Source of the DNA: Escherichia coli | Lineage (GTDB): Bacteria; Pseudomonadota; Gammaproteobacteria; Enterobacterales; Enterobacteriaceae | Length of the DNA stretch: 29,333 nt | NCBI RefSeq assembly: GCF_003334815.1 | Contig: NZ_QOWO01000044.1 | Direction: 5' to 3' (one strand) | Shown here: piece after piece, positions 1 through 8,959 of the stretch | Numbering within the stretch: the first letter of the stretch is position 1 | How the letters are laid out: every line of letters begins with the position of its first letter | Position numbers and translations under genes: made by a program | Notes under the pieces: generated by a model | Told to the model about the DNA's origin: nothing | Database searches by the model: none | The model's input: the letters and a program-made list of their open reading frames with translations, nothing else

Positions 1-77
1 ACCATTTGATCATATGACAAGATGTGTATCTACCTTAACTTAATGATTTTGATAAAAATCATTAGGGGATTCATCAG
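1..77 (-). mobile_element. IS10 outside-end terminal fragment; element body lies left of the window, terminus at about 77
   Basis: Reverse complement of 1..77 reads CTGATGAATCCCCTAATGATTTTTATCAAAATCATTAAGTTAAGGTAGATACACATCTTGTCATATGATCAAATGGT, which I recognise as the IS10 (Tn10) outside end including the terminal inverted repeat. Recalled from memory, not searched. Confidence 0.8.
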
Positions 78-79
78 CA

Positions 80-1402
80 TTATGTGGTCACTGGGGACAA
101 TCGCCGCGTATTTCTGAACTCGCAGAACAAAATAAAATTATTGCTTATAACTACCCACAAGGTGTACTTACACAAACCATACGCGCCGCCGCAGCCCACC
201 AGCCTGGTATTATTAGTGATATTGGCATCGGGACATTTGTCGATCCACGCCAGCAAGGCGGCAAACTGAATGAAGTCACTAAAGAAGACCTGATTAAACT
301 GGTCGAGTTTGATAACAAAGAATATCTCTATTACAAAGCGATTGCGCCAGATATTGCCTTCATTCGCGCTACCACCTGCGACAGTGAAGGCTACGCCACT
401 TTTGAAGATGAGGTGATGTATCTCGACGCATTGGTTATTGCCCAGGCGGTGCACAATAACGGCGGTATTGTGATGATGCAGGTGCAGAAAATGGTTAAGA
501 AAGCCACGCTGCATCCTAAATCTGTCCGTATTCCGGGTTATCTGGTGGATATTGTGGTGGTCGATCCGGATCAAACCCAACTGTATGGCGGTGCACCGGT
601 TAACCGCTTTATTTCTGGTGACTTCACCCTTGATGACAGTACCAAACTTAGCCTGCCCCTAAACCAACGTAAATTAGTTGCGCGGCGCGCATTATTCGAA
701 ATGCGTAAAGGCGCGGTGGGGAATGTCGGCGTCGGTATTGCTGACGGCATTGGCCTGGTCGCCCGAGAAGAAGGTTGTGCTGATGACTTTATTCTGACGG
801 TAGAAACAGGTCCGATTGGCGGAATTACTTCACAGGGGATCGCCTTTGGCGCGAACGTGAATACCCGTGCCATTCTGGATATGACGTCCCAGTTTGATTT
901 TTATCACGGTGGCGGTCTGGATGTTTGTTATTTGAGTTTTGCTGAAGTCGACCAGCACGGTAACGTCGGCGTGCATAAATTCAATGGTAAAATCATGGGC
1001 ACCGGTGGATTTATTGATATCAGTGCCACTTCGAAGAAAATCATTTTCTGCGGCACATTAACTGCGGGCAGTTTAAAAACAGAAATTACCGACGGCAAAT
1101 TAAATATCGTCCAGGAAGGACGGGTGAAGAAATTTATTCGGGAACTACCGGAAATTACTTTCAGCGGAAAAATCGCTCTCGAGCGAGGGCTGGATGTTCG
1201 TTATATCACTGAGCGCTCAGTATTCACGCTGAAAGAAGACGGCCTGCATTTAATCGAAATCGCCCCTGGCGTCGATTTACAAAAAGATATTCTCGACAAA
1301 ATGGATTTCACCCCAGTGATTTCGCCAGAACTCAAACTGATGGACGAAAGATTATTTATCGATGCGGCGATGGGTTTTGTCCTGCCTGAAGCGGCTCATT
1401 AA
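80..1402 (+). CDS. ydiF: Acetate/acyl-CoA:CoA-transferase YdiF, 5'-truncated; the reading frame is open from the IS10 junction and the native N-terminus is missing
   Basis: Frame 2 translates continuously from 80 (LCGHWGQSPRISELAEQNKIIAYNYPQGV...) into the 413..1402 ORF. An in-frame stop at 41..43 and the IS10 sequence lie upstream, so there is no native start. Family I CoA-transferase-like sequence. Confidence 0.85.
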   Translation, partial: LCGHWGQSPRISELAEQNKIIAYNYPQGVLTQTIRAAAAHQPGIISDIGIGTFVDPRQQGGKLNEVTKEDLIKLVEFDNKEYLYYKAIAPDIAFIRATTCDSEGYATFEDEVMYLDALVIAQAVHNNGGIVMMQVQKMVKKATLHPKSVRIPGYLVDIVVVDPDQTQLYGGAPVNRFISGDFTLDDSTKLSLPLNQRKLVARRALFEMRKGAVGNVGVGIADGIGLVAREEGCADDFILTVETGPIGGITSQGIAFGANVNTRAILDMTSQFDFYHGGGLDVCYLSFAEVDQHGNVGVHKFNGKIMGTGGFIDISATSKKIIFCGTLTAGSLKTEITDGKLNIVQEGRVKKFIRELPEITFSGKIALERGLDVRYITERSVFTLKEDGLHLIEIAPGVDLQKDILDKMDFTPVISPELKLMDERLFIDAAMGFVLPEAAH

Positions 1403-1415
1403 CAGGAGTATAATG

Positions 1416-2567
1416 ATGGATTTTTCTTTAACTGAAGAACAAGAACTGCTGCTGGCCAGTATTCGCGAACTGATTACGACTAACTTTCCGGAAGAGTATT
1501 TCCGCACCTGCGATCAAAACGGGACATATCCGCGTGAGTTTATGCGGGCGCTGGCGGATAACGGTATTTCCATGCTTGGCGTGCCGGAAGAATTTGGTGG
1601 TATCCCTGCGGATTACGTCACCCAAATGCTGGCGCTGATGGAAGTGTCAAAATGCGGTGCTCCGGCATTTTTAATTACCAACGGTCAATGTATTCACAGT
1701 ATGCGCCGTTTCGGTTCTGCAGAGCAGCTACGTAAAACGGCAGAGAGCACCCTGGAAACGGGTGATCCCGCCTATGCCCTGGCGTTGACGGAACCAGGTG
1801 CTGGCTCAGATAACAACAGTGCCACTACCACTTACACGCGTAAAAACGGCAAGGTCTACATCAACGGACAAAAAACCTTTATTACCGGTGCGAAAGAGTA
1901 CCCGTATATGCTGGTGCTGGCGCGCGATCCGCAACCGAAAGATCCCAAAAAAGCCTTCACCCTGTGGTGGGTCGACTCCAGTAAGCCCGGCATTAAGATT
2001 AACCCGCTGCATAAAATCGGCTGGCATATGCTCAGCACCTGCGAAGTCTATCTCGACAACGTGGAGGTTGAAGAGAGCGACATGGTGGGCGAAGAAGGAA
2101 TGGGTTTCCTCAATGTGATGTACAACTTTGAGATGGAGCGCCTGATCAACGCCGCGCGCAGCACCGGCTTTGCCGAATGCGCCTTTGAAGATGCCGCCCG
2201 CTATGCCAACCAACGTATCGCTTTTGGTAAGCCCATTGGTCATAACCAGATGATCCAGGAAAAACTGGCGCTGATGGCGATTAAGATCGACAACATGCGC
2301 AACATGGTGCTGAAAGTGGCATGGCAAGCCGATCAGCATCAGTCACTGCGCACCAGCGCGGCGCTGGCAAAACTGTACTGTGCACGTACCGCAATGGAAG
2401 TCATTGATGATGCGATTCAAATCATGGGCGGTCTGGGCTATACCGATGAGGCGCGCGTCTCCCGCTTCTGGCGTGATGTCCGTTGTGAACGTATCGGCGG
2501 CGGTACAGACGAAATTATGATTTACGTAGCAGGTCGGCAGATCCTGAAAGACTATCAGAACAAATAA
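1416..2567 (+). CDS. ydiO: Acyl-CoA dehydrogenase family protein (383 aa)
   Basis: ORF 1362..2567; start chosen at ATG 1416 (MDFSLTEEQ), 7 nt after AGGAG at 1404..1408. Acyl-CoA dehydrogenase-like C-terminal region (QIMGGLGYT...RDVRCERIGGGTDEIM). Confidence 0.9.
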   Translation: MDFSLTEEQELLLASIRELITTNFPEEYFRTCDQNGTYPREFMRALADNGISMLGVPEEFGGIPADYVTQMLALMEVSKCGAPAFLITNGQCIHSMRRFGSAEQLRKTAESTLETGDPAYALALTEPGAGSDNNSATTTYTRKNGKVYINGQKTFITGAKEYPYMLVLARDPQPKDPKKAFTLWWVDSSKPGIKINPLHKIGWHMLSTCEVYLDNVEVEESDMVGEEGMGFLNVMYNFEMERLINAARSTGFAECAFEDAARYANQRIAFGKPIGHNQMIQEKLALMAIKIDNMRNMVLKVAWQADQHQSLRTSAALAKLYCARTAMEVIDDAIQIMGGLGYTDEARVSRFWRDVRCERIGGGTDEIMIYVAGRQILKDYQNK

Positions 2568-2573
2568 TCTGCA

Positions 2574-2606
2574 GGCGGCGCAGCTTCTTAACAAACTGCG
2601 CCGCCA
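2574..2606. terminator. Hairpin between convergent ydiO and ydiP, probably a bidirectional terminator
   Basis: Inverted repeat GGCGGCGCAG (2574..2583) / CTGCGCCGCC (2597..2606) with a 13-nt loop, lying between two convergent stop codons. Confidence 0.5.
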
Positions 2607-2609
2607 GAT

Positions 2610-3521
2610 TTATCCAACAAGACTTACCGGTTGAGGAAATTCAGATAGGATTTCTTGTTCCGCAAAACAGTTTTTAAATTGTCTACGGTAATCGCTGGGC
2701 GAACAACCGACATGGCGCAAAAACAGTTTGGCAAAGTGATCGACATTTTCATAACCCACACGCCAGGAGATCTCTGCCTGTGATAATTCAGTATTAGTGA
2801 GTGACCATTTTGCTTCCGTCATACGCCGTTGAATAACATAGTTAATAGGGGAAATACGATACTCTTTGGTAAATTCATGGCAAATATAACTGACGCTGGC
2901 ACGAAATTTTTTCGATAACTGTTCTAAAGTGATTTTTTCGCGATAATTATTATTCAGATAGAAAAGAATATCTTTTATCAGAACATCTTTTTTAATATAC
3001 CCCTGCTCCGAACGATAAGCATTTTTAAAATTTTCGTAGTAAAGAATGGCTAACGTATAGGCAAATGCATCCCATAACGAAGATGTTTGGCTATTTTTAC
3101 TTTGCGGCAAAATCACACTTAGCTCATTAAATAAGGTTTTTATGACTTCTTTTCCCTGCCCCGCGGCAATTACCGGACAAGAATGCGGTTGCAGTAGCTG
3201 ATTTTCCTCAGCCCCCTGAAACTGAAAGCCGTACAGCGCACAGGTACACGTCGTTGCCGGATCGTTAACGTCAGAGGCCACCGCATGCAGCCTGCCGCGT
3301 TCTATCACCACAATGTCATCCGCATGTGCGACATATAACGAAGAATCGATGGTAAACCTTGCAACCCCTTTCTTGACGTAAATCAACTCGGTTTCATTGT
3401 CATGAACGTGATGTCCGGACTCCCATTTTGGATCATCGCTAAATGCAAAACGTGAAAGCCGTGGCGTTTTACCGGCGACAAACAGCGTTTCACTGGCGTT
3501 ATCAAAACAGCGTTGATACAT
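2610..3521 (-). CDS. ydiP: AraC/XylS-family transcriptional regulator (303 aa)
   Basis: ORF track; C-terminal AraC-type HTH region (ITLEQLSKKFRASVSYICHEF...SPINYVIQRRMTEAKW...). Confidence 0.9.
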   Translation of the reverse strand: MYQRCFDNASETLFVAGKTPRLSRFAFSDDPKWESGHHVHDNETELIYVKKGVARFTIDSSLYVAHADDIVVIERGRLHAVASDVNDPATTCTCALYGFQFQGAEENQLLQPHSCPVIAAGQGKEVIKTLFNELSVILPQSKNSQTSSLWDAFAYTLAILYYENFKNAYRSEQGYIKKDVLIKDILFYLNNNYREKITLEQLSKKFRASVSYICHEFTKEYRISPINYVIQRRMTEAKWSLTNTELSQAEISWRVGYENVDHFAKLFLRHVGCSPSDYRRQFKNCFAEQEILSEFPQPVSLVG

Positions 3522-3618
3522 GACAACCTCCCTATTCCATGAGCAAGCAAAAACAATATATGCCGGATAAAATACGGCGTGTATTGCGGTTATACAACCG
3601 CGTTTAGCGAGAGCTAAA

Positions 3619-3721
3619 CAAGATTATTTACACTGAATGCAAGATTGTACGGTCATGGAATAACTATATTGCCGCAAATTGCACTTTTGTTTTAGCGATC
3701 GCATTTTTTTTGCAAGATTGT
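3619..3721. promoter_or_regulatory. Divergent ydiP / ydiQRST-fadK promoter region with three copies of a CAAGATT(G/A)T motif
   Basis: CAAGATTAT at 3619..3627, CAAGATTGT at 3640..3648 and 3713..3721; the last two sit inside identical 11-mers TGCAAGATTGT (3638..3648, 3711..3721). Confidence 0.3.
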
Positions 3722-3836
3722 TGGCAAGGAAAACAGCTTGCTCCGTCGAAAACCCCGCACCGCTATCGCACACTATTTTCAGGCCATTTTTACCTTCCAT
3801 CGGAGATGGTTCCGTATGCGACTCACAGGAGAAATC

Positions 3837-4601
3837 ATGAAAATAATAACCTGCTTTAAGCTGGTGCCTGAAGAACAGGACATTGTTGTCACTCCAGAAT
3901 ACACCCTGAATTTCGACAATGCCGACGCCAAAATCAGCCAGTTCGATCTCAATGCCATTGAAGCTGCAAGCCAGCTCGCAACAGATGACGATGAGATAGC
4001 CGCGCTGACCGTTGGCGGCTCATTGTTGCAGAACTCGAAAGTGCGCAAAGACGTGCTATCCCGCGGGCCGCACAGCCTGTATTTGGTGCAGGATGCGCAA
4101 CTTGAACATGCACTGCCTCTCGATACCGCAAAAGCGCTGGCGGCAGCAATTGAAAAGATCGGCTTCGATTTACTGATCTTTGGTGAAGGTTCCGGCGACC
4201 TTTATGCCCAGCAGGTTGGCTTGCTGGTCGGAGAAATTCTGCAACTTCCGGTGATTAATGCAGTGAGTGCTATTCAGCGTCAGGGCAATACACTGGTGAT
4301 TGAACGCACGCTTGAAGATGATGTTGAAGTTATTGAACTCTCTGTTCCAGCCGTGCTCTGCGTCACCTCCGATATTAACGTGCCACGCATTCCTTCGATG
4401 AAAGCCATTCTCGGCGCGGGTAAAAAACCGGTAAATCAGTGGCAGGCAAGTGATATTGACTGGAGCCAGAGCGCGCCACTTGCTGAACTGGTCGGCATTC
4501 GCGTACCGCCGCAAACAGAACGTAAGCACATCATTATCGATAACGATTCGCCGGAGGCCATTGCCGAGCTGGCGGAACATCTGAAGAAAGCCCTGAACTG
4601 A
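3837..4601 (+). CDS. ydiQ: Electron-transfer flavoprotein beta-subunit-like protein (EtfB/FixA family, 254 aa)
   Basis: ORF 3738..4601 trimmed to internal ATG 3837 (MKIITCFKLVPEEQD), preceded by AGGAGA at 3827..3832. EtfB-like sequence. Confidence 0.9.
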   Translation: MKIITCFKLVPEEQDIVVTPEYTLNFDNADAKISQFDLNAIEAASQLATDDDEIAALTVGGSLLQNSKVRKDVLSRGPHSLYLVQDAQLEHALPLDTAKALAAAIEKIGFDLLIFGEGSGDLYAQQVGLLVGEILQLPVINAVSAIQRQGNTLVIERTLEDDVEVIELSVPAVLCVTSDINVPRIPSMKAILGAGKKPVNQWQASDIDWSQSAPLAELVGIRVPPQTERKHIIIDNDSPEAIAELAEHLKKALN

Positions 4602-4620
4602 AGCCTACGGAGAAGAAACG

Positions 4621-5559
4621 ATGAGTCAATTAAACAGCGTCTGGGTCTTTAGCGATAATCCTGAACGTTATGCTGAACTGTTTGGCGGCGCTCAGCAATG
4701 GGGCCAACAGGTGTATGCCATTGTACAAAATACCGACCAGGCGCAGGCAGTTATGCCTTATGGTCCAAAATGTCTTTATGTTCTTGCGCAAAACGACGCG
4801 CTGCAACGCACTGAAAATTACGCCGAAAGCATTGCTGCCCTGCTGAAAGATAAACACCCCGCTATGTTGCTGTTGGCCGCGACGAAACGTGGTAAAGCGC
4901 TGGCAGCACGGTTAAGTGTGCAACTGAATGCGGCGCTGGTGAACGATGCCACGGCGGTGGATATTGTCGATGGTCACATTTGCGCCGAACACCGGATGTA
5001 TGGCGGGTTAGCGTTCGCTCAGGAAAAGATCAACAGACCGCTGGCGATCATTACCCTTGCACCCGGTGTTCAGGAACCGTGCACCAGTGATACCTCTCAT
5101 CAGTGCCCGACAGAAACGGTACCTTATGTTGCTCCGCGTCATGAAATTCTCTGTCGCGAACGCCGTGCGAAAGCCGCAAGCAGCGTGGACCTGAGCAAAG
5201 CAAAACGTGTGGTTGGCGTCGGTCGTGGACTGGCGGCGCAGGATGACCTAAAAATGGTCCACGAACTGGCGGCGGTGCTGAATGCTGAAGTCGGCTGTTC
5301 ACGTCCAATTGCCGAAGGCGAGAACTGGATGGAGCGTGAACGTTATATCGGTGTCTCCGGCGTGTTGCTGAAATCCGATCTCTACCTGACGCTGGGGATC
5401 TCCGGGCAGATCCAGCATATGGTTGGCGGCAACGGCGCAAAAGTGATTGTCGCCATCAATAAAGATAAAAATGCGCCAATCTTCAACTATGCCGACTACG
5501 GTCTGGTGGGCGATATCTACAAAGTCGTCCCTGCCCTGATTAGCCAGTTGAGCCGCTAA
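4621..5559 (+). CDS. ydiR: Electron-transfer flavoprotein alpha-subunit-like protein (EtfA/FixB family, 312 aa)
   Basis: ORF track; EtfA-like FAD-binding C-terminal region (VGVGRGL...YIGVSGVLLKSDLYLTLGISGQIQHMVG). Confidence 0.9.
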   Translation: MSQLNSVWVFSDNPERYAELFGGAQQWGQQVYAIVQNTDQAQAVMPYGPKCLYVLAQNDALQRTENYAESIAALLKDKHPAMLLLAATKRGKALAARLSVQLNAALVNDATAVDIVDGHICAEHRMYGGLAFAQEKINRPLAIITLAPGVQEPCTSDTSHQCPTETVPYVAPRHEILCRERRAKAASSVDLSKAKRVVGVGRGLAAQDDLKMVHELAAVLNAEVGCSRPIAEGENWMERERYIGVSGVLLKSDLYLTLGISGQIQHMVGGNGAKVIVAINKDKNAPIFNYADYGLVGDIYKVVPALISQLSR

Positions 5560-5614
5560 TTCCCCTTTCAACCACATCTCCCGCTGTAAACGCAGCGGGA
5601 AGGGAGCATAACGC

Positions 5615-6904
5615 ATGTCGGATGACAAATTTGATGCCATTGTGGTCGGTGCGGGCGTTGCTGGTAGCGTTGCCGCACTGGTCATGGCACGAGCCGGGCT
5701 GGATGTCCTGGTGATAGAACGCGGCGACAGTGCCGGATGTAAAAACATGACCGGCGGGCGTCTTTATGCCCACACACTTGAAGCAATCATTCCAGGCTTT
5801 GCAGTATCAGCGCCGGTAGAACGCAAGGTCACACGCGAGAAAATCTCCTTCTTAACCGAAGAAAGCGCCGTTACCCTCGATTTTCACCGCGAGCAGCCAG
5901 ATGTTCCGCAACACGCATCTTATACCGTATTGCGTAATCGTCTGGACCCGTGGTTGATGGAACAAGCCGAGCAGGCGGGCGCGCAGTTTATCCCAGGCGT
6001 TCGCGTCGACGCGCTGGTTCGTGAAGGAAACAAGGTCACTGGCGTGCAGGCTGGGGATGATATTCTCGAAGCGAATGTGGTGATTCTGGCTGATGGCGTT
6101 AACTCGATGCTTGGCCGCTCGCTGGGAATGGTTCCCGCTTCCGATCCGCATCATTACGCTGTTGGTGTTAAAGAGGTTATTGGCCTCACACCAGAACAGA
6201 TCAACGATCGCTTTAATATTACGGGCGAGGAAGGTGCCGCCTGGCTGTTTGCCGGTTCCCCTTCTGACGGCCTGATGGGCGGGGGATTTCTCTATACCAA
6301 CAAGGATTCCATATCCTTGGGGCTGGTTTGTGGATTGGGTGATATCGCCCATGCGCAAAAAAGCGTGCCGCAAATGCTGGAAGATTTTAAACAACACCCC
6401 GCCATTCGCCCGCTGATTAGCGGCGGCAAACTGCTTGAATATTCCGCGCATATGGTGCCGGAAGGCGGTCTGGCAATGGTGCCGCAACTGGTTAACGAGG
6501 GCGTGATGATCGTTGGTGACGCCGCAGGCTTCTGCCTGAATTTGGGTTTTACGGTCCGCGGCATGGATTTAGCCATTGCATCGGCTCAGGCTGCCGCCAC
6601 AACGGTGATCGCCGCCAAAGAACGCGCGGATTTCTCCGCCAGCAGTCTGGCGCAATACAAACGTGAGCTGGAACAAAGCTGCGTCATGCGTGATATGCAG
6701 CATTTTCGCAAGATCCCGGCGCTGATGGAAAACCCGCGCCTGTTTAGCCAATACCCACGAATGGTAGCCGACATCATGAACGAGATGTTCACCATCGACG
6801 GCAAACCAAACCAGCCGGTACGAAAAATGATCATGGGACATGCGAAGAAAATTGGGCTGATCAACTTGCTGAAAGATGGCATTAAGGGAGCAACCGCGCT
6901 ATGA
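5615..6904 (+). CDS. ydiS: FAD-dependent oxidoreductase, FixC / Etf-quinone oxidoreductase-like (429 aa)
   Basis: ORF track; N-terminal dinucleotide-binding motif DAIVVGAGVAGSVAA; GGAGG ribosome-binding site upstream. Confidence 0.9.
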   Translation: MSDDKFDAIVVGAGVAGSVAALVMARAGLDVLVIERGDSAGCKNMTGGRLYAHTLEAIIPGFAVSAPVERKVTREKISFLTEESAVTLDFHREQPDVPQHASYTVLRNRLDPWLMEQAEQAGAQFIPGVRVDALVREGNKVTGVQAGDDILEANVVILADGVNSMLGRSLGMVPASDPHHYAVGVKEVIGLTPEQINDRFNITGEEGAAWLFAGSPSDGLMGGGFLYTNKDSISLGLVCGLGDIAHAQKSVPQMLEDFKQHPAIRPLISGGKLLEYSAHMVPEGGLAMVPQLVNEGVMIVGDAAGFCLNLGFTVRGMDLAIASAQAAATTVIAAKERADFSASSLAQYKRELEQSCVMRDMQHFRKIPALMENPRLFSQYPRMVADIMNEMFTIDGKPNQPVRKMIMGHAKKIGLINLLKDGIKGATAL

Positions 6905-7194
6905 GCCAGAACGCTACGGTTAACGTCGACATCAAATTAGGCGTCAATAAATTCCATGTTGATGAGGGCCACCCGCATATCATTCTGGCGGAAAATCCCG
7001 ATATCAATGAATTCCATAAATTAATGAAAGCCTGCCCTGCCGGACTTTATAAGCAGGATGACGCAGGAAACATTCATTTTGATTCCGCCGGTTGTCTGGA
7101 GTGCGGCACCTGTCGGGTGCTGTGCGGTAACACTATTCTCGAACAGTGGCAATATCCCGCAGGCACCTTCGGTATTGATTTTCGCTACGGCTAA
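6901..7194 (+). CDS. ydiT: Ferredoxin-like protein, FixX family (97 aa)
   Basis: ORF track; cysteine motifs CPAGLY...CLECGTCRVLC; start overlaps the ydiS stop (ATGA), suggesting translational coupling. Confidence 0.9.
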   Translation: MSQNATVNVDIKLGVNKFHVDEGHPHIILAENPDINEFHKLMKACPAGLYKQDDAGNIHFDSAGCLECGTCRVLCGNTILEQWQYPAGTFGIDFRYG

Positions 7195-7250
7195 TCATGC
7201 ATCCCACAGGCCCGCATCTCGGGCCTGATGTTCTGTTTCGAGAGTCCAAC

Positions 7251-8897
7251 ATGAAAGTGACATTAACGTTTAACGAACAACGTCGTGCGGCGTATCGTCA
7301 GCAAGGGTTATGGGGCGATGCTTCGCTGGCCGATTACTGGCAGCAGACCGCTCGTGCGATGCCAGACAAAATTGCCGTGGTCGATAATCATGGTGCATCG
7401 TACACCTATAGCGCGCTCGATCACGCCGCGAGCTGTCTGGCAAACTGGATGTTAGCGAAGGGTATTGAATCAGGCGATCGCATCGCATTTCAACTGCCTG
7501 GCTGGTGTGAATTTACCGTTATCTATCTTGCCTGCCTGAAAATCGGTGCAGTTTCCGTGCCGCTGTTGCCTTCCTGGCGGGAAGCAGAACTGGTGTGGGT
7601 GCTCAATAAGTGTCAGGCAAAAATGTTCTTTGCACCGACGTTGTTTAAACAAACGCGTCCGGTAGATTTAATCCTGCCGCTGCAAAATCAGCTTCCACAA
7701 CTACAACAAATTGTCGGCGTGGACAAACTGGCTCCCGCCACCTCTTCCCTCTCATTAAGTCAGATTATCGCCGACAATACCTCACTGACCACGGCGATAA
7801 CGACCCACGGCGATGAATTAGCTGCGGTGCTGTTTACCTCCGGAACCGAGGGTCTGCCAAAGGGCGTGATGCTAACGCATAACAATATTCTCGCCAGTGA
7901 GCGGGCTTATTGCGCGCGACTGAATCTGACCTGGCAGGATGTCTTTATGATGCCTGCGCCACTTGGTCACGCAACGGGCTTTCTGCATGGCGTAACGGCA
8001 CCATTCTTAATTGGCGCTCGCAGCGTGTTGTTAGATATTTTCACTCCTGATGCGTGTCTCGCGCTGCTTGAGCAGCAGCGTTGCACCTGTATGCTCGGCG
8101 CAACGCCGTTTGTCTATGATCTTTTGAATGTACTAGAGAAACAACCCGCGGACCTTTCAGCGCTGCGTTTCTTTCTTTGCGGCGGAACCACAATCCCCAA
8201 AAAAGTGGCGCGTGAATGCCAGCAGCGCGGCATTAAATTATTAAGTGTTTATGGTTCCACAGAAAGTTCGCCGCATGCGGTGGTGAATCTCGATGATCCT
8301 TTGTCGCGCTTTATGCACACCGATGGTTACGCTGCCGCAGGTGTAGAGATTAAAGTGGTCGATGACGCACGCAAGACCTTACCGCCAGGTTGCGAAGGTG
8401 AAGAAGCCTCGCGTGGCCCCAATGTGTTTATGGGGTATTTTGATGAACCTGAATTAACCGCCCGTGCCCTGGATGAAGAAGGCTGGTATTACAGCGGCGA
8501 TCTCTGCCGTATGGATGAGGCTGGCTATATAAAAATTACCGGACGCAAAAAAGATATTATTGTCCGCGGCGGCGAAAATATTAGCAGCCGTGAAGTGGAA
8601 GATATTTTATTGCAGCATCCTAAAATTCACGATGCCTGTGTGGTTGCAATGTCCGATGAACGTTTAGGTGAACGATCATGCGCTTATGTCGTGCTGAAAG
8701 CGCCGCATCATTCATTATCGCTGGAAGAGGTAGTGGCTTTTTTTAGCCGTAAACGGGTCGCAAAATATAAATATCCTGAACATATCGTGGTAATCGAAAA
8801 ACTACCGCGAACTACCTCAGGTAAAATACAAAAGTTTTTGTTAAGAAAAGATATTATGCGGCGTTTAACGCAGGATGTCTGTGAAGAGATTGAATAA
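7251..8897 (+). CDS. fadK: Short-chain acyl-CoA synthetase FadK (ydiD), 548 aa from ATG 7251; an alternative upstream ATG at 7197 would give 566 aa
   Basis: ORF 7197..8897; AMP-binding motif FTSGTEGLPKGV and YGSTE. The 7251 start matches the 548-aa length I recall for E. coli FadK. Confidence 0.88.
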   Translation: MKVTLTFNEQRRAAYRQQGLWGDASLADYWQQTARAMPDKIAVVDNHGASYTYSALDHAASCLANWMLAKGIESGDRIAFQLPGWCEFTVIYLACLKIGAVSVPLLPSWREAELVWVLNKCQAKMFFAPTLFKQTRPVDLILPLQNQLPQLQQIVGVDKLAPATSSLSLSQIIADNTSLTTAITTHGDELAAVLFTSGTEGLPKGVMLTHNNILASERAYCARLNLTWQDVFMMPAPLGHATGFLHGVTAPFLIGARSVLLDIFTPDACLALLEQQRCTCMLGATPFVYDLLNVLEKQPADLSALRFFLCGGTTIPKKVARECQQRGIKLLSVYGSTESSPHAVVNLDDPLSRFMHTDGYAAAGVEIKVVDDARKTLPPGCEGEEASRGPNVFMGYFDEPELTARALDEEGWYYSGDLCRMDEAGYIKITGRKKDIIVRGGENISSREVEDILLQHPKIHDACVVAMSDERLGERSCAYVVLKAPHHSLSLEEVVAFFSRKRVAKYKYPEHIVVIEKLPRTTSGKIQKFLLRKDIMRRLTQDVCEEIE

Positions 8898-8921
8898 GTT
8901 TCATCTTCGGGGATCACATAA

Positions 8922-8959
8922 CCCCGGCGACTAAACGCCGCCGGGGATTTATTTTATTT
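8922..8959. terminator. Hairpin plus T-run between convergent fadK and ppsA
   Basis: CCCCGGCG (8922..8929) / CGCCGGGG (8939..8946) followed by ATTTATTTTATTT; it overlaps the ppsA stop region. Confidence 0.5.

Follow-up and report, generated by a model that had tools for sequence, protein, structure and literature searches.

The 29,333-nucleotide stretch of Escherichia coli DNA analyzed here, referred to as the window, begins inside a copy of IS10 and runs into the ydi gene cluster, comprising ydiF, ydiO, ydiP, ydiQ, ydiR, ydiS, ydiT and fadK. An initial annotation had read this cluster as resembling a flavin-based, electron-bifurcating enoyl-coenzyme A (CoA) reductase module. Here, gene coordinates are those of the RefSeq annotation mapped onto the window and families were assigned using NCBIfam models with curated cut-offs. 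The features are as follows:

1..77, minus strand: outer end of IS10 (IS4 family); the window begins inside the element
77..1402, plus strand: ydiF 3' fragment, codons 91-531 of 531, fused family I CoA-transferase of the Pfam CoA_trans (PF01144) type
1416..2567, plus strand: ydiO, CaiA-like acyl-CoA dehydrogenase/enoyl-CoA reductase (NF008997, 786.9 bits)
2610..3521, minus strand: ydiP, AraC-family regulator (NCBIfam)
3368..3391, plus strand: candidate FNR site CTTTCTTGACGTAAATCAACTCGG, inside the ydiP 5' end, approximately 450 bp upstream of ydiQ
3837..4601, plus strand: ydiQ, small (beta, FixA-type) subunit of an electron-transferring flavoprotein (Etf) (NCBIfam)
4621..5559, plus strand: ydiR, large (alpha, FixB-type) Etf subunit (NCBIfam)
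5615..6904, plus strand: ydiS, FixC-like, Etf:quinone oxidoreductase (ETF-QO)-like flavin adenine dinucleotide (FAD) protein (NF007450, 976.6 bits)
6901..7194, plus strand: ydiT, FixX-like ferredoxin with ligands for one [4Fe-4S] cluster (62% identity to FixX)
7207..7227, plus strand: GC-rich hairpin within the ydiT-fadK spacer, 8 bp stem with 7 G-C pairs
7251..8897, plus strand: fadK (ydiD), acyl-CoA synthetase, CaiC paralogue (NF004758, 1086.9 bits)
8954-11332, minus strand: ppsA (RefSeq annotation)

The gene content given in the initial annotation for ydiF-ydiO, ydiP and ydiQRST-fadK is borne out by both the RefSeq mapping and NCBIfam. Every cluster protein matches its expected family above the cut-off save for the truncated YdiF, whose fragment matches FadX-like and AtoD/ScoA-like models, and YdiT, which scores 143.9 bits on the FixX model against a cut-off of 166. 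The AraC regulator was correctly described as divergent: ydiP points away from ydiQ and towards ydiO. The 4-nt overlap of ydiS and ydiT is also present, as the ATGA at 6901-6904 that contains the ydiT start and the ydiS stop.

Positions 77-10000 of the window differ from E. coli K-12 MG1655 (record NZ_CP032667) by three single bases, at 179, 1217 and 5037. The first two lie within ydiF, where the change at 179 converts Leu125 to Ile and that at 1217 falls on a first codon position, while the third is synonymous (ydiR codon 139). At least 80% of the 10-kb region is present in one place in 5,349 of 5,426 complete E. coli genomes and YdiO is 80-97% identical in 40+ species. The idea that the cluster is decaying or cryptic was rejected on account of this retention and of the conservation of YdiO across genera. 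Losses were seen in individual strains. In E. coli E69, ydiO is cut after approximately residue 71 and is followed directly by ppsA, a deletion of ydiO'-ydiP-ydiQRST-fadK (L049 1434-2851). Enterobacter sp. EA-1 (L048) has a degraded-looking cluster with partial or low-identity YdiF, YdiO (70%, residues 3-370), YdiQ and YdiT, in which clean YdiR, YdiS and FadK were not found.

The truncation of the first gene by IS10, recognized in the initial annotation, is confirmed by an exact IS10 terminus. The terminal 23 bp of the element, CTGATGAATCCCCTAATGATTTT, match the window at 55-77, where chance predicts no match, and the alignment to MG1655 starts at base 77, where IS10 ends. The fragment of ydiF lacks codons 1-90 and the start codon, and has no promoter of its own, and ydiF is thus inactivated in the window strain. 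Because the first 90 codons are removed, the pathway proposed below should be defective in this strain. The junction itself occurs in none of the 5,426 complete E. coli genomes. A second, independent insertion of an ISVsa5-type IS10 was found in ydiF of strain ET12567, after nt 846 (L001 3577-4905), as compared to after nt 270 for the window copy. Strain C9 appears to share the ET12567 site and MSB1_1D has two copies in the region. ydiF may be a recurrent IS10 target, or the insertion may mark the lineage of a laboratory strain.

A different picture emerged for the start of fadK. The initial annotation had placed ydiT and fadK 2 nt apart and suggested that they are translationally coupled, a distance that rests on the longest open reading frame, beginning at the ATG at 7197. 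A fadK start of the form M-[KST]-[VIM]-[TS], equivalent to window position 7251, is conserved in 33 other species, and lies 23-241 nt past ydiT in 32 of these and 1490 nt past it in the other (L037). The 18-codon extension from 7197 is missing even from other Escherichia species and the hairpin at 7207-7227 falls within it. As the start is at 7251, leaving a 56-nt spacer that holds a hairpin, coupling of ydiT and fadK is unsupported.

On sequence grounds, the ydi locus is a paralogue of the cai/fix carnitine-respiration system. Pairwise identities are 48% for YdiO-CaiA, 56% for YdiQ-FixA, 45% for YdiR-FixB, 61% for YdiS-FixC, 62% for YdiT-FixX and 29% for FadK-CaiC. YdiO scores 452 bits on the CaiA model and, as the cut-off is 540, it is a CaiA paralogue and not CaiA itself. 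It carries FEMERL, a catalytic-base motif of the isovaleryl-CoA dehydrogenase type, and a Gly at the position of Glu376 in medium-chain acyl-CoA dehydrogenase. Both this Gly and the helix G motif [DE]xER[LF] are common to YdiO and CaiA. The PDB contains no CaiA or YdiO structure and the nearest solved acyl-CoA dehydrogenases are generic.

In the cai/fix system, which converts carnitine to gamma-butyrobetaine, the pathway is primed by a ligase and CoA is cycled by a CoA-transferase. The enoyl-CoA generated by a dehydratase is then reduced by CaiA, the electrons coming from the Etf and FixCX. That reduction by CaiA requires FixAB is attributed to Walt and Kahn (2002) in a 2022 review. The ydi locus resembles this system in five paralogous proteins (CaiA, FixA, B, C and X), in the same proposed logic, in an Etf outside group 2 (see below) and in a one-cluster FixX. 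The differences lie around this core. CaiB is a family III CoA-transferase whereas YdiF belongs to family I. In place of the crotonase-type CaiD, ydi has linkage to a free-acid dehydratase, AroD, and a dehydrogenase, YdiB. Instead of the betaine/carnitine/choline transporter (BCCT)-type antiporter CaiT and the regulator CaiF there are YdiN, of the major facilitator superfamily (MFS), and the AraC-type YdiP. Neither crotonase nor BCCT genes are present in the ydi locus, and AroD/YdiB and YdiN would take over the corresponding roles. The initial annotation was thus correct in noting likeness to the Bcd, Car and FixABCX systems and had not named the closer analogue, cai/fix of E. coli itself. The ydi locus is best filed as an additional Cai/Fix-type, CoA-dependent reductive module, with a specific and apparently unpublished candidate class of substrate.

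Electron bifurcation makes testable demands on the Etf. In this model (that of the initial annotation and of Dellomonaco 2011), YdiQR would oxidize reduced nicotinamide adenine dinucleotide (NADH) at a second FAD. One electron would pass to YdiO and enoyl-CoA, or through YdiS to quinone, and the second would reduce a low-potential ferredoxin or flavodoxin, perhaps by way of YdiT. Bifurcating Etfs form group 2 and carry three motifs: RxGV (Arg38 in Thermotoga maritima), which lies next to the bifurcating FAD, and GxxSPTxV, a loop that wraps it, both in the small subunit, and RPxFGG in the large subunit, of which Arg140 is needed for ferredoxin reduction in T. maritima (PMC10734219). These motifs were sought using pairwise HMMER alignments to solved Etfs and multiple alignments with approximately 40 orthologues, and the group-labelled references (G1-G5) were taken from Table S2 of the same paper.

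All three motifs are absent from E. coli YdiQR, from all of the approximately 40 orthologues and from E. coli FixAB. At the RxGV position YdiQ has N-F-D-N-A, nearly all orthologues have N-F-D-[NR]-A and FixA has D-F-S-K-A. None of 39 YdiQ orthologues has Arg here (Phe in 38, Leu in 1). The GxxSPTxV loop and its 5-residue insertion are missing from YdiQ, which has S-A-P-L-A-E-L, and the C-terminal arm of YdiQ better matches non-bifurcating 5OW0_B (Geobacter) and 1EFP_B (Paracoccus) than 7KOE_A. At RPxFGG, YdiR has E-H-R-M-Y-G-G, the Sutterella wadsworthensis protein T-F-R-T-Y-G-G and FixB K-H-M-V-Y-G-G, so that the aligned residue is His or Phe. In the YdiQ family alignment the group-2 segment GADTxATS is replaced by ALPxxTA, and the group-2 nucleotide loop G[RK]Q[AT][IT]DGDTAQVG by GEGSGDLYAQQVG. 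Together with ISQFD, this gives YdiQ nucleotide-binding loops that are unlike those of both group 1 and group 2.

The phylogeny agrees with the motifs. Of the group-labelled Etfs, the pair best matching YdiQ and YdiR is PAE3586/PAE3587, of group 3. Neighbour-joining analysis of the concatenated subunits, with bootstrapping, unites YdiQR and E. coli FixAB in one clade with 100% support. This clade is sister to the group-3 sequences of Pyrobaculum and Thermoplasma (69.5%) and group 2 stands apart, with moderate support at the deeper nodes. Judged by sequence, YdiQR is shown to be an Etf outside the bifurcating group.

The electron-transfer pair was examined in the same way. YdiS is, by homology, clearly related to FixC and ETF-QO: its homologues carry the Pfam domains ETFQO_UQ-bd and ETF-QO_FixC_C, and it scores 239.6 bits to 7KOE_C (EtfC) and 89 bits to pig ETF-QO (2GMH). 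YdiT scores 56 bits to EtfX. It has five Cys (one CxxCxxC and an upstream C-P), as against nine in two motifs in T. maritima EtfX and four in E. coli FixX. Three Cys of the second [4Fe-4S] cluster are missing and the remaining ligands suffice for one cluster.

Thus, at the sequence level YdiQR lack the bifurcating-Etf signatures whose absence the initial annotation had itself listed as counting against its reading, and that reading is not borne out by the sequence tests. The likeness in gene content on which it was built is real: the cluster combines the genes of Bcd/Car-Etf with FixCX, YdiQ and YdiR find their closest PDB matches in CarD, the Clostridioides difficile Etf, Lct-Etf and T. maritima EtfABCX (6FAH, 5OL2, 7QH2 and 7KOE), all bifurcating, and YdiS and YdiT closely match only chains C and D of 7KOE. 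Bcd/EtfAB and CarCDE (5OL2, 6FAH) share with ydi an enoyl-CoA reductase of the acyl-CoA dehydrogenase family with a heterodimeric Etf. However, they have the group-2 motifs, NADH/FAD loop and C-terminal SPT loop that ydi lacks, they have no FixC/FixX pair, and the N-terminal ferredoxin domain of CarE is absent from YdiR. The FixABCX/EtfABCX complexes (Azotobacter vinelandii; T. maritima, 7KOE) have the same four-subunit composition. They differ in that the ydi Etf is not of group 2, YdiT has one of the two [4Fe-4S] sites and ydi has an additional acyl-CoA dehydrogenase partner. E. coli has a third Etf/FixCX-like set, ygcNOPQR (L004 2658-6556), with identities of 42% for YgcN-YdiS, 41% for YgcO-YdiT and 31% for YgcQ-YdiR. 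YgcO has only five Cys, and the Citrobacter orthologue of the E. coli ygc Etf is labelled group 3 (PMC10734219).

A hint of the substrate comes from the genes that accompany the cluster. A scan with YdiO of one genome per GTDB species yielded 45 loci. In approximately 40 GTDB species ydiN-ydiB-aroD-ydiF-ydiO are contiguous, in an order that is kept wherever the flank suffices, and the genera include Escherichia, Citrobacter, Kosakonia, Yersinia, Serratia, Dickeya, Brenneria and Symbiopectobacterium. Two Sutterella species, which are Betaproteobacteria, keep the same five genes with ydiQRST on the other side and in the opposite orientation, and without ydiP and fadK. Metagenomic contigs encoding YdiO homologues of 77-83% identity show three further arrangements:

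araC (opposite strand), ydiN-ydiF-ydiO-etfB-etfA-ydiB-aroD-fixC-fixX (L058/59)
ydiN-ydiF-ydiO-etfB-etfA-aroD-fixC-fixX-fadK, with DHquinase_I alone between etfA and fixC (L056/57)
ydiN-ydiN-ydiF-ydiO-etfB-etfA-ydiB-aroD, then ApbA and MaoC genes (L060/61)

In all five gene orders (Enterobacterales, Sutterella and three metagenomic) a type I dehydroquinase accompanies ydiF-ydiO-etf, and a YdiB-type quinate/shikimate dehydrogenase is kept in four of the five. The embedded dehydrogenase belongs to the YdiB (quinate/shikimate) equivalog (545 bits against a cut-off of 349) and is not of the AroE type. One gene set shared by five gene orders argues for functional coupling rather than inherited synteny. 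A FixABCX-type electron-transfer set stands beside the reductase in Enterobacterales, Sutterella and the metagenomic clusters. The position of ydiP is conserved in Enterobacterales and an AraC-type gene also adjoins the cluster in L058 and L060. The initial annotation was therefore right about the content from ydiF to fadK and drew the unit too small, as ydiN-ydiB-aroD travel with ydiF-ydiO across bacterial classes.

Several further features of these neighbourhoods were observed. The E. coli aroD-ydiF spacer, outside the window, contains a GC-rich hairpin of 11 bp directly past the aroD stop (L050 13456-13482). It has an A-run and no T-run on the plus strand and looks REP (repetitive extragenic palindromic)-like or like a weak terminator. 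Matches to promoter and terminator consensus sequences were no more numerous than in shuffled controls. Yersinia, Dickeya and Serratia have, between ydiM and ydiN, a LysR-family gene that is divergent from ydiN-ydiB-aroD-ydiF-ydiO (L024 3763-4665, L026 3281-4282, L032 3706-4605), and E. coli has no gene at this place. A YdiO homologue of 74% identity (P0027) stands in an unrelated gene context.

Because ydiN, ydiB and aroD are co-located with ydiF-ydiO, the substrate is most likely shikimate or 3-dehydroshikimate. Judging by these conserved neighbours, it is probably plant-derived shikimate or quinate that is reduced, rather than fatty acids. Shikimate and 3-dehydroshikimate are cyclohex-1-ene-1-carboxylates, the CoA esters of which would be 2-enoyl-CoAs. 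In the proposed mechanism, YdiN would import quinate or shikimate, and YdiB and AroD (a type I dehydroquinase) would interconvert quinate, 3-dehydroquinate, 3-dehydroshikimate and shikimate. FadK would prime a CoA thioester with ATP, after which YdiF would recycle CoA from product to fresh substrate. YdiO would reduce the alpha,beta C=C (ring C1=C2) of the thioester, using electrons predicted to flow from (mena)quinol to YdiS (FAD), YdiT ([4Fe-4S]), YdiQR (FAD) and finally YdiO. Here, YdiS and YdiT may act as a split, ETF-QO-like pair with a single Fe-S cluster, linking YdiQR to the (mena)quinol pool. Reduction would yield hydroshikimate (3,4,5-trihydroxycyclohexanecarboxylate) and the process could be described as a CoA-dependent "hydroaromatic respiration". 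We infer both the substrate and the direction of electron flow. The full mechanism, that is, CoA-dependent, non-bifurcating, quinol-linked reduction of shikimate or dehydroshikimate, is put forward tentatively, at a little under an even chance. That ydiN-ydiB-aroD-ydiFO-ydiP-ydiQRST-fadK constitute a single CoA-dependent pathway of quinate/shikimate respiration in Enterobacterales and Sutterella is possible, its chance being somewhat short of even.

The proposed electron path has parallels in non-bifurcating Etf/ETF-QO chains (mitochondrial ETF-QO 2GMH; Geobacter 5OW0; group-3 Methylophilus 1O94). In ETF-QO a single Fe-S cluster sits between the Etf and the quinone-site flavin, as proposed for YdiST. 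The C-terminal arm and the loop lengths of YdiQ/YdiR are similar to those of these chains and YdiQR lies near group 3 and 5OW0 in the tree. The differences are the distinct nucleotide loops of YdiQ and the reversed electron flow proposed for ydi. With menaquinone at approximately -70 mV and enoyl-CoA at approximately -10 mV (values quoted in PMC5861303), quinol-driven reduction is thermodynamically feasible.

Published observations touch on both the substrate and the conditions. S. wadsworthensis, which carries a ydi-like cluster (L040 183-11146), is reported to reduce the enoate group of shikimate to hydroshikimate, with growth being stimulated on formate (bioRxiv 10.1101/2022.12.26.521950). 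When two stationary phases of a shikimate-overproducing E. coli were compared, the 50 most strongly changed genes included ydiQ, R, S and T (PMC4015609), and this one transcriptome supports the co-expression of these four genes. An FNR chromatin immunoprecipitation-microarray (ChIP-chip) peak was reported in vivo at "ydiP/ydiQ", with a predicted site (PMC1802558), which provides a link to anaerobiosis. Literature searches for links between ydiF and shikimate, and between quinate/shikimate and acyl-CoA dehydrogenase or Etf, found nothing relevant, and matches to "dihydroshikimate" were mostly misnomers for dehydroshikimate.

Two other systems act on related rings. Eggerthella lenta has a flavin reductase, induced by shikimate (Little et al.), that converts the enoate of shikimate to hydroshikimate as a respiratory acceptor, which is the reaction predicted for ydi. 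This enzyme belongs to the unrelated fumarate/urocanate-reductase-like family and works directly on the free acid, without CoA chemistry. The cyclohexanecarboxylate pathway (AliA ligase/cyclohexanecarboxyl-CoA dehydrogenase) employs an acyl-CoA dehydrogenase-family enzyme on C1-C2 of cyclohexane(ene)carbonyl-CoA, and cyclohexanecarboxylate-CoA ligase is the second-best NCBIfam family of FadK, at 416.8 bits. However, the ydi proteins score far under the equivalog cut-offs (417 versus 792 and 186 versus 650), and that pathway is oxidative and ends in ring cleavage.

A number of points weigh against reduction of shikimate by a non-bifurcating ydi system. One contig type (L062/63) has MFS-ydiF-ydiO only. 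AroD is also the biosynthetic dehydroquinase of E. coli, so part of the Enterobacterales linkage could be historical, and in K-12 the aroD-ydiF gap is 142 nt and holds a hairpin. As to the Etf, missing group-2 motifs are not proof of a missing second FAD. Moreover, a conserved Arg of YdiR lies immediately next to the residue aligned with the Arg of RPxFGG, one position later, and may be a functional substitute; the motif test thus lowers the likelihood of bifurcation without eliminating it. YdiF acts on short-chain acyl-CoAs. The characterized activity of FadK is with C6-C8 fatty acids (2022 review) and the title of Gulevich 2016 assigns ydiO/ydiQRST to anaerobic fatty-acid beta-oxidation. The study of S. 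wadsworthensis assigned no shikimate reductase gene in that species and E. lenta uses the unrelated flavin reductase (bioRxiv 10.1101/2022.12.26.521950). The shikimate-producer transcriptome had no non-producing control and its direction of change is unclear (PMC4015609). Finally, the searchable literature yielded no experiment in which E. coli reduces shikimate or quinate.

Historically, the ydi acyl-CoA dehydrogenase and Etf have been placed in anaerobic beta-oxidation, as proposed by Campbell et al. 2003 and as the Gulevich et al. 2016 title asserts. Here, an ordinary Etf/ETF-QO chain would replace FadE without oxygen: YdiO would oxidize short- or medium-chain acyl-CoAs supplied by FadK and YdiF, with electrons passing from YdiQR to YdiST, quinone, and nitrate or other acceptors. 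FadK accepts C6-C8 acids, and the use of fatty acids is abolished when both fadD and fadK are mutated (2022 review). A non-bifurcating type of Etf and a single-cluster YdiT suit such an ETF-QO-like chain, and the FNR binding at ydiP/ydiQ fits as well. However, the same review gives the function of YdiQR as unknown and evidence for a fatty-acid role, including experimental evidence for YdiQR in growth on fatty acids, as lacking; control of fadK by FadR or CRP was not seen and its anaerobic induction was not reproduced. When candidate acyl-CoA dehydrogenases, including YdiO, were deleted or overexpressed, the effect on butyrate formation was minimal (PMC13126070). No hydratase, 3-hydroxyacyl-CoA dehydrogenase or thiolase was found within 10 kb in the approximately 45 loci (apart from a MaoC-type dehydratase in L060), the linkage to ydiB and aroD over five gene orders is left unexplained, and the closest characterized paralogue, CaiA/FixABCX, operates reductively. 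Anaerobic beta-oxidation is considered unlikely.

It is quite unlikely that the locus is a cai/fix-like reductive module for another short acid, of the crotonate or acrylate type or another cyclic acid, with ydiB/aroD incidental or serving a side reaction. YdiO also matches the acryloyl-CoA reductase AcrC model (234 bits), and sister modules with YdiO homologues of 62-68% identity in Desulfovibrio and Escherichia albertii carry CaiB-type transferases and no shikimate genes, from which the CaiA/FixABCX scaffold seems to be re-used for several acids. However, all homologues of at least 77% identity on informative contigs keep DHquinase_I, and most keep the YdiB-type dehydrogenase, despite the shuffled gene order. 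The sister modules (D. desulfuricans, L053/L054 5134-17537; E. albertii, L055 4504-12872) each contain a family III CoA-transferase, an MFS transporter, a second acyl-CoA dehydrogenase and EtfBA, and that of Desulfovibrio additionally has FixC, FixX, a metallo-beta-lactamase-fold protein and a ligase.

Electron bifurcation, which the Arg of YdiR and the gene content favour and which the missing motifs, the C-terminal arm and nucleotide loop of YdiQ, the tree and the lost Cys of YdiT oppose, is very unlikely. The idea is also not a new one, since engineered reverse beta-oxidation had already been proposed to involve a ferredoxin-linked enoyl-CoA reductase from this cluster; among open-access papers, none was found that ties ydiQ to bifurcation.

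For the remainder of the window, 10001-29333 (ppsA, ppsR, aroH ... pheST, thrS and neighbours), the matches to E. coli genomes are at 99.9-100%. The best records align in 2-3 pieces that cover more DNA than the query, which suggests indels relative to them.

The genes ydiO, ydiQRST, ydiF and ydiP are conserved in E. coli and still lack a proven function, and metabolic engineers have employed them for reverse beta-oxidation as a presumed ferredoxin-coupled enoyl-CoA reductase. An Etf of the non-bifurcating type, and co-travel with quinate/shikimate genes across classes, together suggest specific substrates for testing. If reduction of shikimate or dehydroshikimate is the true function, it would be an unrecognized anaerobic electron acceptor reaction for E. 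coli and Salmonella in the gut. It would resolve the paradox that an organism unable to grow on quinate has a quinate dehydrogenase, YdiB, and would provide a genetic basis for the long-known gut-microbial reduction of dietary quinate and shikimate towards cyclohexanecarboxylate and hippurate. In Salmonella, ydiFO, ydiQRST and ydiP tend to have been lost from extraintestinal serovars, and the same function, if true, may account for this loss.

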